A stretch of 36,126 nucleotides of DNA. It comes from a virus (Duplodnaviria; Caudoviricetes). Positions 27,241-32,382 of the stretch are shown in pieces. The DNA is taken from the IMG/VR virus record IMGVR_UViG_3300047290_000027, positions 1-36,126 of that record. The stretch is one strand, 5' to 3'. The position numbers and the translations under genes are program-made. The notes beneath the pieces are model-generated. The model was not told where the DNA came from. It searched no databases and was given only the letters and a program-made list of their open reading frames with translations. Position 1 is the stretch's first letter. Each line of letters opens with the position of its first letter.

Positions 27241-27246
27241 TAAAAA

Positions 27247-27334
27247 TGGAGACATTTGGAGACATTTGGAGACATTGTCTCCGTGAATGGAGACACGACA
27301 AACGAGAGTCTATAAGACTCGTAGTTTGTCTCCA
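27247..27334. repeat. Iteron-like repeats, candidate replication origin
   Basis: TGGAGACATT x3 tandem (27247-27276), TGGAGACA at 27288, inverted copies ending 27282 and 27334, hairpin GAGTC-TATAA-GACTC. Confidence 0.75.
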
Positions 27335-28115: not shown

Positions 28116-28547
28116 GTGGCAGGAAGACCGAAATTCAGACAGGACATGACTCTGCTTGAGGATTTGCCTCACGACATGATTGTGTCCATGTTTGAGGCAG
28201 GCAAGTCACAGACAACGATCTGCTACGAACTTGGCATTGGGCGCAGGGCGCTAGAGCAATGGATCGAAGATACCGATCCCTCTATAATTGCGCGTGCGCG
28301 CGCGATAGCCGCCGATAAGTTGGCGGTAGAGACAATGTCCATTGCGGATGACATGGACGTGGAGCATCCGCAGCGCGATGTCCAGCGTATCCGAACCAGG
28401 CAATGGCTGGCCGAACGATGGGATCAGAAGACTTACGGCTTACAAAAGGCTGCCTCGATCAACATCAACATCCAAGATTTACGCATGGCCGCGCTGCGCC
28501 ATGTTGAAGTGGTTGACGAGTTATCCACAGGCGAGAGGCAGGATTGA
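28116..28547 (+). CDS. terS: Terminase small subunit
   Basis: N-terminal HTH, ARARA-AAD-L---IAD, RIRTRQWLAERW---YG pattern; upstream of terL. Confidence 0.75.
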   Translation: MAGRPKFRQDMTLLEDLPHDMIVSMFEAGKSQTTICYELGIGRRALEQWIEDTDPSIIARARAIAADKLAVETMSIADDMDVEHPQRDVQRIRTRQWLAERWDQKTYGLQKAASININIQDLRMAALRHVEVVDELSTGERQD

Positions 28548-28628
28548 GCCATGATTGAACACATTGCCCTGTGGATAACGCAACTCTGCCTGTTTGTTGA
28601 GCAAATACTGGTCAGTTATCCACAATTG

Positions 28629-28656
28629 ACTTAACATAATGGACATCGTGTAAAAT
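28629..28656 (-). other. dif-like XerC/XerD recombination site
   Basis: Minus strand ATTTTACACGA-TGTCCA-TTATGTTAAGT; XerD arm 10/11 to TTATGTTAAAT; 11-6-11 architecture. Confidence 0.75.
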
Positions 28657-28689
28657 GGAATATGTCAGCATTCTGTAAGAAAGCATATA

Positions 28690-28702
28690 GATCAATGACT
28701 TG
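28690..28702 (+). promoter_or_regulatory. IHF-like binding site
   Basis: GATCAA-TGAC-TTG vs WATCAANNNNTTR (one mismatch), A/T-rich 5' flank. Confidence 0.45.
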
Positions 28703-28865
28703 CATGAATAGTGGATTGTGGATAACTTTCAGCGGTAAAGTGGCCGCTGCTGGCGCTGGAGCGTGCCGCTGGCCGTGGGCGGCTGCGATCCCCCCCTTGC
28801 GCGATTTCGGCGGGGGCGGCTGAAGATGCAACCGAACACCTACCGAATCCCATAGCCCACCGCCT

Positions 28866-30338
28866 ATGACCGACCCCCATACCCCCACTGCGACAAAGCC
28901 GCGCGTCCCGAAAAAAAATTCCGAGGATTTGCTGGCGAATAACCCGTTTGTCGAATTCGTCAAGCTGTACAAGAACAACCCTGTACTTTTCGTCAGAGAG
29001 GTGCTGAACACTGAGCCTGACCCGTGGCAAGTGGAATTCTTGAATCATATTGCGTCAGGCAACCGGCGTATCTCTGTCAGATCAGGCCATGGCGTTGGGA
29101 AGTCCACGGCGAGCGCCTGGGCGATGATCTGGTACTTGCTGCTGCGCTTTCCGGTGAAGGTGGTGGTGACAGCGCCAACGAGCAGCCAGTTGTATGACGC
29201 GCTGTTTGCGGAGGTCAAGCGGTGGGTGAAGGTGCTGCCGCCGATGCTGGCTGATATGTTGGAGGTTAAGCAGGACAGGATTGAGGTGAAAGATGCCAAC
29301 GAGGAGGCGTTTATCTCAGCCAGGACATCTAGAGCCGAGCAGCCCGAGGCGCTCCAAGGGGTTCACAGTGACCATGTGATGCTGGTGGGGGACGAGGCCA
29401 GCGGTATTCCGGAGAAGGTGTTTGAGGCGGCCAGCGGCTCAATGTCGGGGCATAACGCCGTCACGCTGCTACTGGGTAATCCGGTGCGAAGTAGCGGATT
29501 CTTCTACGACACCCATAACCGTCTGGCGGGGGATTGGGTGACGATGAAGGTGTCCTGCGCCGACTCACCGCGCGTGTCTGAGGCTTACATTGAGGAGATG
29601 AAGTCGCGGTACGGCGAGGAGAGCAATGCTTACCGCATCCGCGTGCTGGGTGAGTTTCCAAGGAGTGACGAGGATACGGTTATTCCCATGGAGCTGTTGG
29701 ACTTGGCGATGAATCGGGACGTGGTGGCGAGTCCTTATGCGCCGCTGGTCTGGGGATTGGACGTTGCAAGGTTTGGCTCGGATCGCTCGGCGCTGTGCAA
29801 GCGGCGGGGGAATGCGGTGATTGAGCCGATTAAGACGTGGAAGAATTTGGACTTGATGCAGCTGACGGGCGCGGTGGTGGTTGAGTTTGAGGCGTTGCCG
29901 CCAAGCGACAGGCCGGAGGAGATACTGGTGGACAGCATTGGGCTTGGTGCTGGAGTGGTGGATCGGCTGAAGGAGTTGGGTTTACCGGCTCGCGGAATAA
30001 ACGTCAGCGAGTCACCGGCCATGGGTGGGACTTACCGGAATCTGAAGGCCGAGCTTTGGTACAAGGCCAAGGCGTGGCTGGAGCAGCGGGACTGTCGGCT
30101 GCCCAAGGATGAGTTGCTGGTGGCCGAGTTGGCGACCGTGCGTTATATGTTTACGTCTAACGGAAAGATTCAGATTGAGAGCAAGGATGAGATCAAGAAG
30201 CGGGGGTTGGCCTCTCCGGACAAGGCTGATGCGTTCTGTTTGACGTTTGCCTCAGACGCTGTAATCGGCATGATGGGGTCAAAGGCCAGCACCAAGTGGG
30301 GACAGCCGTTGAAAAGAAACCTGTCAAGGGTTGCATAA
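28866..30338 (+). CDS. terL: Terminase large subunit
   Basis: Walker A VRSGHGVGKS, Walker B LVGDEASG, LGNP coupling motif, nuclease WGLDVARFGSD...SPDKADA. Confidence 0.95.
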   Translation: MTDPHTPTATKPRVPKKNSEDLLANNPFVEFVKLYKNNPVLFVREVLNTEPDPWQVEFLNHIASGNRRISVRSGHGVGKSTASAWAMIWYLLLRFPVKVVVTAPTSSQLYDALFAEVKRWVKVLPPMLADMLEVKQDRIEVKDANEEAFISARTSRAEQPEALQGVHSDHVMLVGDEASGIPEKVFEAASGSMSGHNAVTLLLGNPVRSSGFFYDTHNRLAGDWVTMKVSCADSPRVSEAYIEEMKSRYGEESNAYRIRVLGEFPRSDEDTVIPMELLDLAMNRDVVASPYAPLVWGLDVARFGSDRSALCKRRGNAVIEPIKTWKNLDLMQLTGAVVVEFEALPPSDRPEEILVDSIGLGAGVVDRLKELGLPARGINVSESPAMGGTYRNLKAELWYKAKAWLEQRDCRLPKDELLVAELATVRYMFTSNGKIQIESKDEIKKRGLASPDKADAFCLTFASDAVIGMMGSKASTKWGQPLKRNLSRVA

Positions 30339-31067: not shown

Positions 31068-31215
31068 ATCTGGGCTTTATGCCAACATCAACGCCAAGCA
31101 AAAGCGCATCGCGGCTGGCTCTGGCGAGAAGATGAATAAGGTTGGCTCTAAGGCAGCGCCATCTGCTGCCGACTTCAAGCTGGCGGCCAAGACTGCGAAG
31201 AAGCCGAAGAAGTGA
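31057..31215 (+). CDS. Small Lys/Ala-rich basic protein (52 aa)
   Basis: Start reassigned to ATG 31057; MATKSGLYANINAKQKRIAAGSGEKM...KTAKKPKK. Confidence 0.75.
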   Translation: MATKSGLYANINAKQKRIAAGSGEKMNKVGSKAAPSAADFKLAAKTAKKPKK

Positions 31216-31910
31216 TCTCACCGATATGCATCTCAACAGTACACGGCAAAGGTTTGCGGGTGATGCTCACCAGCATTGCCGAGTACTGTCCAGAAGTGCC
31301 TGTCTATTTGCGAGGGCCAGAGTCCATCATTGGCGGCTTTAACGCTGACTTCAAACTGTTTGGTGTTGCGCGCAATTTTGGTCTTGACTACAACGAGATC
31401 ATTGACCGTGCCTTTACCGATGGGTTTGAGTCAGTGATCTGCGCCAATGACGATATTGTGCTGACACCAACGAGCTACCGGCTGCTGATGGAGGATGTCA
31501 AGCAACTGAAGGCAGAAACCGGTGAGCCGGTGGGCTGGGTTTCTGCGCGGTGCGATGCAGCCAGGCCAGTGCAAAACGTGCGCTCTAACCCATTTAATCA
31601 GCAGCTGCACTACTTCAAGTACCCTTATGAAGACGCAATTGTTCCGATGGAATGCCCCTCCCCTATCTTTGCATGGATTGGTGCCGATGCGTGGAGCGCG
31701 GCTGTATTTCCACCGCTTAATTGGTACTCAGATGACGTTCATTGCGAGGATTTGCGTGCCGCTGGCTTTCACCATTACCTGAGCCGGTCATATGTGCATC
31801 ACATTGGCAGCCAGACGATAGGCATGAACGGTGACGCACTGACCAAGGCCGCCATCCCGTGGCTATTACAGAACAGGCCAGAATATGCAAAGCAGTGGTT
31901 TGACACTTAA
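31212..31910 (+). CDS. GT-A fold (GT2-like) glycosyltransferase
   Basis: ICANDDIVL, WYSDDVHC, YVHHIGSQT motifs. Confidence 0.75.
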   Translation: MISPICISTVHGKGLRVMLTSIAEYCPEVPVYLRGPESIIGGFNADFKLFGVARNFGLDYNEIIDRAFTDGFESVICANDDIVLTPTSYRLLMEDVKQLKAETGEPVGWVSARCDAARPVQNVRSNPFNQQLHYFKYPYEDAIVPMECPSPIFAWIGADAWSAAVFPPLNWYSDDVHCEDLRAAGFHHYLSRSYVHHIGSQTIGMNGDALTKAAIPWLLQNRPEYAKQWFDT

Positions 31911-32382
31911 CTTAGGCTCCGGCAAGGACTACAAGCCTGATTGCGTGAATGCTGACATTCGTGCAGATGTTGGTGCCGATTGGGTGGTGGATATTGGTGC
32001 GCCGATGCAGATTGACCGTCAGTTTTCCAAGATCATTGCCAATGATGTGCTGGAACACATACCGAACTTAGTGCAGGCCATGACCAACTGCCGCGACTTG
32101 CTGGTGGATGGTGGAGAGATGCATATCCATGTGCCGTATGACCTGAGCCATGGCGCATGGCAAGACCCAACACACGTCAGAGCATTCAATGAAAAATCAT
32201 GGGTGTACTACTGCGAATGGGCGTGGTACTTGGGCTGGAAGGGCAGCAAGTTTGAGATGACGCATTTGGAGATGCGCCTAAGCGAGTACGGCGCAAGCCT
32301 AAAATTACCGCAAGATGAGATATTGCGGCTGCCTCGCGCCGTAGACTCTATGTACGTTATTCTGAAGAAAGTAACAGCATGA
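31885..32382 (+). CDS. Class I SAM-dependent methyltransferase (Methyltransf_11-like)
   Basis: LNLGSG, VNADI, DVLEHI, LL-DGG---I-VP, QDPTH. Confidence 0.85.
   Translation: MQSSGLTLNLGSGKDYKPDCVNADIRADVGADWVVDIGAPMQIDRQFSKIIANDVLEHIPNLVQAMTNCRDLLVDGGEMHIHVPYDLSHGAWQDPTHVRAFNEKSWVYYCEWAWYLGWKGSKFEMTHLEMRLSEYGASLKLPQDEILRLPRAVDSMYVILKKVTA

Follow-up and report, generated by a model that had tools for sequence, protein, structure and literature searches.

Several described systems resemble parts of the locus reported here. The Xer recombination sites cer (ColE1) and psi (pSC101) use the accessory proteins PepA with ArgR or ArcA and show topological selectivity. Phage P1 cyclises its genome through Cre and loxP, a recombination site that lies near the packaging start and is duplicated in the terminal redundancy. 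The datA locus of E. coli has closely spaced DnaA boxes of the same orientation around one IHF site and promotes IHF-dependent hydrolysis of DnaA-ATP, while an oriC-type origin places its array of boxes beside an unwinding element or DnaA-trios. According to the available text of PMC2533119, Cre also acts as a multimer resolvase, and divergent central regions mark plasmid-type Xer sites as well as those of separate replicons or chromosomes, with avoidance of fusion as the proposed reason. IMEX, which include CTXphi, TLC and dif-type DJR prophages, have described members that are non-tailed and found integrated at dif (available parts of PMC12715192 and 10.1101/633727). Finally, the accessible text on phage T5 describes conserved DnaA boxes of untested function, in pairs 3 bp apart, in the iss region of the terminal repeat (10.1101/866236).

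The DNA stretch of 36,126 bases analysed here, called the window below, holds one podophage genome of about 35.7 kb from an uncultured freshwater bacterial virus. Its gene set includes an SU10-type capsid and portal, an Sf6-like TerS, TerL, a primase-helicase and a repressor-like HTH gene, and no family match to an integrase, resolvase, recombinase or par protein was found among the window ORFs scanned. The contig end (35675-36126) matches positions 1-150 over about 150 bp and then passes into a different allele of the capsid gene; the window is a complete circle with a strain-chimeric end overlap. Judged by its motifs, the region between terS and terL carries a block of about 200 bases, the cassette, that is a putative Xer-centred unit to which DnaA-type boxes are accessories. 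The labels DnaA, IHF, XerC and XerD denote matches to consensus motifs, and offsets are counted from the first T of the XerD arm (28631). The features are as follows, with counts of relatives explained further below.

28116..28547, + strand: terS, Sf6-like small terminase (PF20901, E 1.4e-11; phrog_1482)
28521..28529, + strand: DnaA-type box 1, offset -110; perfect in 57/59 distinct relatives at -110, -100 or -99
28570..28578, - strand: DnaA-type box 2, offset -61; at most one mismatch in 56/59, perfect in 16/59
28616..28624, + strand: DnaA-type box 3, offset -15, 4 bp from the XerD arm; perfect in 40/59
28629..28656, - strand: XerC/D-type core, 11-6-11, with XerD arm at 28629-28639, spacer at 28640-28645 and Comamonadaceae-type XerC arm at 28646-28656
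28663..28679, + strand: two hexamers, TGTCAG and TGTAAG, 11 bp apart on the XerC side (+32/+43); in 109 of 154 distinct cassettes
28690..28702, + strand: IHF-like site, offset +59, XerC side; one mismatch to the consensus
28717..28725, - strand: DnaA-type box 4, offset +86; place and orientation vary among relatives (+82, +86, +94)
28790..28826, + strand: C-run/G-run hairpin, holding the window's only run of at least six C or G
28866..30338, + strand: terL, large terminase, 55% to phiM5 and 46% to C72C1

The earlier note on this DNA had reported four perfect DnaA boxes in two inverted pairs around a dif-like and an IHF-like site, and this description of the window is borne out. The four perfect copies of TTATCCACA are the only ones in 36,126 bases (shuffle mean 0.21 genome-wide; at least four copies in 0/100 shuffles), and the relaxed pattern TTWTNCACA found the same four sites only in a scan of the window. 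Boxes 1 and 2 form a 12-nt inverted repeat (28520-28531/28568-28579, 100%), while boxes 3 and 4 belong to one of 18 nt (28614-28631/28710-28727, 89%) that contains the 13-nt perfect pair noticed before. Box 1 is indeed overprinted, in frame, on the last codons of terS, the gap of 4 bp between box 3 and the XerD arm was given correctly, and the IHF-like site is present with its single mismatch. The boxes are spaced by 40-92 bp in alternating orientation, without closely spaced same-strand boxes, and no DnaA-trio-like run was found on searching the cassette, the centre of which is moderately AT-rich (62-68%).

The XerD arm contains the sole perfect XerD-arm 9-mer in the window, and the core spacer differs from the usual host dif spacer at two of six positions. 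KOPS motifs number one per strand, without polarity. The hexamer pair TGTCAG/TGTAAG may possibly be a candidate site of a further regulator. Small ORFs over the cassette region had no Pfam match. A structured RNA was rejected as an explanation of the region for lack of a notable Rfam match, as was a promoter or terminator, consensus sites for which were not found.

Like cer and psi as described in the available text of PMC2533119, the cassette combines a core of the host XerCD type with a non-dif central region and a conserved flank of about 100-200 bp that carries host-protein motifs. Its IHF side is the XerC side, which is where cer and psi have their conserved accessory flank. It differs in being located on a tailed phage at the likely packaging end, in motifs that point to IHF and DnaA rather than to PepA with ArgR or ArcA, and in conserved boxes that also occupy the XerD side. 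With IMEX the window phage shares a dif-like site and the lack of an integrase, but it is tailed, no integrated form was found, and its spacer diverges between lineages. With T5 it shares conserved DnaA boxes that occupy non-coding DNA at the end, here the likely end, of a tailed-phage genome; the T5 boxes, however, are paired 3 bp apart, and the available text of that paper contains 0 mentions of XerC (10.1101/866236). Consensus boxes and one IHF site within about 200 bp also recall datA and oriC, whereas the cassette is Xer-centred, with neither tandem same-strand boxes nor a trio-like run, and with box orientation that is not conserved. In the full-text literature searched, whose coverage leaves out most subscription journals, we found no account of a cassette that combines dif, IHF and DnaA sites at the terminase locus of a tailed phage. 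The nearest printed case, as far as the available text of 10.1101/866236 goes, is the set of DnaA boxes in the T5 terminal repeat.

We determined how well the cassette is conserved among relatives anchored on terS (family 1). The sample consisted of the best 80 of 192 viral-contig stretches ranked by TerS similarity, a choice blind to the cassette; 76 of those 80 had at least 230 bp downstream of terS and were usable, yielding 59 distinct cassettes. The XerC/D core was present with both arms and 11-6-11 geometry in 76/76 loci, and the IHF-like site was found at +59/+60 in 59/59 distinct cassettes. The earlier note had proposed checking whether boxes and dif are kept together and had allowed that the boxes might be absent from relatives. 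They are co-conserved, with two to four boxes at no more than one mismatch in each of the 59. Box 4 is perfect at +86 in 31/59; it also occurs, on the opposite strand, at +82 and +94. The symmetry of two inverted pairs is not conserved among the 59 distinct relatives: since box 2 is perfect in 16 and box 3 in 40, and box 4 shifts, this symmetry is a trait of the window's subclade. Under constant arms, the spacer falls into four types, which comprise 46, 6, 5 and 2 cassettes. The sequences TGGACA, TAGTCA, TAGTGA and TGAACA stand against TATACA in the host, so that the central region differs from that of chromosomal dif. Retention of the 11-6-11 layout in 76/76 loci while only the spacer drifts is the pattern expected of a recombining site.

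The cassette also occurs beside unrelated terminases. Family 2, which came from a pattern scan, has a TerS 24% and a TerL fragment 28% identical to those of the window, and comprises 34 TerS-anchored loci, 33 of them with enough sequence. Of these, 25/33 (17 distinct; family 2a) hold the cassette in inverted orientation to terS; its boxes fall at -110/-61/-15, its IHF-like site lies at +59/+60 in 17/17, and its ungapped identity to the window over -110..+72 is 59-79%. The remaining 8/33 are direct cassettes with the IHF-like site at +71. A third TerL family, without a close cultured member, carries the cassette upstream of a G-run and of terS. Across the IHF-offset comparison, many loci of which were picked by patterns that contained the motif, offsets cluster near +51, +60 and +70 with loosely helical phasing (R ~0.5), and one group has +56; several inverted freshwater cassettes have no IHF site. 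As read from these alignments, the whole putative block is shown to have been transferred and inverted between unrelated terminase modules, and there is strong comparative support for a cassette that is real and mobile. Its position follows the C/G-run before the late genes rather than terS itself.

In marine relatives (TerL ~56%), 21/21 usable loci of 23 fetched show a perfect XerD arm immediately ahead of the C-run, and no further perfect XerD arm occurs elsewhere in those 21. Their cassettes occur in either orientation and with many spacers, including a host-type spacer in five loci; the XerC arms are mostly canonical, and perfect DnaA boxes were found in none. Of the two arms, XerD varies less; the XerC arm of one locus (L647) is degenerate. 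Between terS and terL of the GenBank phage C72C1 there are a core, an IHF-like site and a hairpin; the literature search found no paper on this phage. Conversely, the Methylophilales phage Venkman (record ends, L622) has boxes and an IHF-like site beside a likely terS, with no core. DnaA boxes likewise lie next to a likely terS in HTVC106P (L624:35256-35565), without an Xer core. An Xer core near the terminase was sought in Venkman, MJing1, HTVC106P, tf and DB2 and found in none. Blastn found the same cassette in no cultured phage or plasmid, and the stretches fetched from cultured or GenBank TerL relatives of family 2 (DU_RP_II, DSL-LC05 and two spring phages) contained no cassette. Taken across these groups, the Xer core is the constant part, and the XerC arm appears to follow the host group. 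Terminase-like genes lie close to an Xer core and to motifs of the IHF-like or DnaA kind in other uncultured phages (L426, L433, L146), and two more (L424, L429) have tandem Xer cores with such motifs.

Of the eight genome stretches fetched, five were P4-like integrase-primase elements that carry boxes and an internal core whose spacer is not of the host type. These elements, from genomes of the Rhodoferax family (L332, L333, L335, L336 and L337, in G010, G183, G300, G171 and G088), have their Xer core near the integrase gene, usually with an IHF-like site and away from chromosomal dif. The core is possibly a multimer-resolution site there. In these elements the cassette also has iteron-like repeats at a distance of a few hundred bases.

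The core arms match Comamonadaceae chromosomal dif. The single-copy chromosomal dif of the Rhodoferax family (pattern match in 98/301 genomes) has the same arm types and a spacer that is mostly TATACA. A near-identical phage contig binned in a Burkholderiaceae MAG is weak evidence of a host link. We scanned metagenomes with a pattern containing neither boxes nor IHF, which gave 120 loci; 104 distinct cores among them had enough flank. Among the 73 cores with a host spacer, at least two boxes were found near two, an IHF site near none and a C/G run near four; among the 25 with a phage-type spacer, the corresponding counts were 24, 15 and 21, and the six remaining cores had no cassette. These counts indicate that the cassette was not copied from the surroundings of host dif. 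That derivation was rejected on the genomes as well, where a perfect box lay near chromosomal dif at 2/29 sites. One exception, rare in the family, is Rhodoferax sp. U2-2l (L221:6001-6040), the chromosomal dif of which has a perfect DnaA box separated from its XerD arm by 4 bp, just as box 3 of the phage is, and adjoins apparent inovirus remnants.

The genome end was placed through phiM5, the closest TerL relative with a named host (55%). Its annotated 357-bp terminal repeat, confirmed by comparing the ends, starts in a small ORF before terL and ends just past a C-run hairpin like that of the window, before a similar heptamer. From this look-alike hairpin we predict a genome-end boundary near 28826/28827, and the phiM5 repeat transferred to the window would extend over about 28470-28826 and hold the whole cassette. 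Since phiM5 has neither an Xer core nor a perfect box, the hairpin homology only places the genome end. Pac sites are often located in and beside Sf6-like terS genes; a pac start inside the gene, together with headful packaging, would likewise duplicate the cassette. Like loxP of P1, the cassette would thus be near the packaging start and is predicted to be duplicated in the redundancy, with the difference that the window has no family match to a phage recombinase and the site is of the host-Xer type. Two cultured lytic phages, HdK5 (L498:170-197) and SYP (L500:134-161), each have a dif-like core with an altered spacer within the terminal repeat (459 and 351 bp, respectively); neither core is accompanied by boxes or an IHF site.

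Counting against a duplicated cassette, no doubling of depth was seen in the likely source run, where the contig over 28494-29098 had a depth of 43.2 against 34-55 for its neighbours; contigs, the only form of the 22 runs listed, cannot show ends. Contig ends near the cassette were scattered. The 127-bp end overlap of one relative (G306) fits an assembly overlap. In a 35-kb relative (G305; L656:1-20) the contig begins a single base ahead of the site equivalent to the phiM5 repeat boundary, which may reflect a genome end or a break in the assembly. Three runs each have a single contig with a loose end at 28626, and a fourth run has a piece of 35 bases across the core; these may come from other dif sites. 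No termini for Venkman are given in its paper, nor do the available parts of PMC10386132 and PMC8163748 give termini.

We put at roughly 50% the probability that the cassette is a self-recombination site at the genome end, at which host XerCD circularises or monomerises the phage with IHF and DnaA as helpers. At the level of sequence, the comparisons show the core with host-family arms and a variable non-host spacer, the boxes, an IHF site at a fixed distance, and a block that has been transferred and inverted. A block inside the terminal redundancy would give each virion two direct copies. XerCD could recombine these after injection, following the logic of P1 loxP with a host enzyme, and/or resolve dimers of a replicating circle as at cer and psi. 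The altered spacer would block fusion with host dif. Bending by IHF and binding of DnaA might build or license the synapse in place of PepA and ArgR, which is the weakest step of the proposal; DnaA binding would couple recombination to the state of host DnaA. An FtsK-independent route that uses accessory proteins would agree with the lack of KOPS polarity and with the conservation of the flank on the XerC side. DnaA boxes are dispensable in some lineages: because not one perfect box was found in the marine relatives and the boxes of Venkman have no core beside them, DnaA is better seen as an optional helper, and IHF is the better-supported one. Against circularisation counts the need of cer and psi for a supercoiled substrate, unlike freshly injected linear DNA, and multimer resolution would oppose concatemer packaging. 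Also counting against the reading are the separability of the parts (several inverted freshwater cassettes, for instance, have no IHF site), the loose phasing of the IHF offsets, the unpolarised KOPS and the host-type spacer of five marine loci.

Among the three interpretations offered in the earlier note, this reading agrees best with the one in which DnaA and IHF are accessories to Xer recombination or to the packaging end, as the cassette moves as a unit around its core with IHF on the XerC side at a near-fixed distance. The other two, a datA-like sink and a DnaA-dependent origin, gained no positive support. The note had also centred the finding on the boxes, and marine relatives keep the core without perfect boxes; the likely genome-end position and the non-host spacer had escaped it. 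In its widest form, the proposal would be that a single cassette, which brings host XerCD to the ends of the entering genome with DnaA as a novel accessory, is exchanged among many unrelated tailed phages, and also satellites, of freshwater Comamonadaceae, so that circularisation or monomerisation is licensed by the host initiation state. We consider this version tentative and rather doubtful.

The motifs might instead be independent host-factor sites that have gathered at the genome end, IHF and DnaA serving packaging or end handling (terminase assembly, or membrane tethering as has been proposed for T5) and XerD or XerCD acting as a roadblock or decatenation aid without recombination. Boxes and IHF without a core in Venkman, and a core and IHF without perfect boxes in marine relatives, are what such separable sites would give, as is an XerD arm steadier than the XerC arm that is degenerate in L647. 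T5-like phages, moreover, keep eight DnaA boxes in the terminal repeat (available text of 10.1101/866236). Separate sites would not, however, readily account for both arms being held in the 11-6-11 layout in 76/76 loci under a drifting spacer, for a block that travels intact and inverted between unrelated terminases, or for a similar layout in P4-like elements, where no terminase was noted. We regard this as a possible but doubtful alternative.

We consider it unlikely that the boxes and IHF-like site are a DnaA-dependent origin, used for the initial replication rounds or to maintain the phage like a plasmid, next to which the dif-like site would resolve dimers. An origin would agree with the four consensus boxes, the IHF-like site, a centre of 62-68% AT and the iteron-like repeats near the cassette in P4-like elements, but there is no trio-like run and no par family match, box number and orientation vary, and marine relatives have no perfect boxes. 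As the earlier note had stated, the phage also has a primase-helicase with its own repeats, 1.3 kb upstream. These iteron-like TGGAGACA repeats (27244-27334), which follow directly on the primase-helicase as three copies spaced 10 bp apart together with inverted ones, are themselves a candidate replication origin.

Integration of the phage at host dif by XerCD, with the cassette as attP and terS split from terL in a tailed IMEX, is quite improbable. It would agree with the missing integrase family match, the repressor-like HTH gene and the host-type arms, and also with the commonest spacer type, which matches the host at the three bases next to the XerC arm, and with the host spacer of the five marine loci. 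This three-base match is nevertheless lost in spacers TAGTCA, TAGTGA and TAATCA, and P4-like elements keep the core internal and integrate elsewhere. In limited samples, no attL/attR hybrid (phage-dif junction) was found among 88 genome loci or 120 metagenome loci, and no TerL above 36% identity in 401 family genomes.

That the locus is a datA-like sink which titrates or inactivates host DnaA as phage copies rise seems very unlikely. Perfect boxes and an IHF site do lie within 210 bp on DNA that reaches high copy number, but the tight tandem, same-strand boxes of the datA layout are missing, the boxes flanking IHF switch orientation between lineages, and a sink would need neither a fixed register to the Xer core nor a place at the genome end. 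Finally, it is scarcely credible that the boxes are TerS-recognition (pac) repeats resembling DnaA boxes by chance, as the earlier note had considered: although they lie in and beside an Sf6-like terS, a frequent location of pac, the same boxes recur at the same offsets in inverted cassettes beside a TerS only 24% identical, and also upstream of terS in the third terminase family.

Genome closure in integrase-less tailed phages with short terminal repeats is mostly assumed, and the self-recombination reading of the cassette offers a testable answer in the form of a host-Xer site at the end. Putative sites of this kind were seen in at least three families of terminase, and cultured phages have them within their terminal repeats. 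If the reading is true, tailed phages would join plasmids and filamentous phages as users of Xer; if DnaA and IHF are its accessories, this would be a new type of Xer control that links phage establishment to the host cell cycle. The apparent agreement of the XerC arm with the host group could serve as a host-prediction marker for uncultured freshwater phages. Elsewhere in the window, genes resembling a glycosyltransferase and a methyltransferase are present in the structural region (1472-2125 and 31212-32382).
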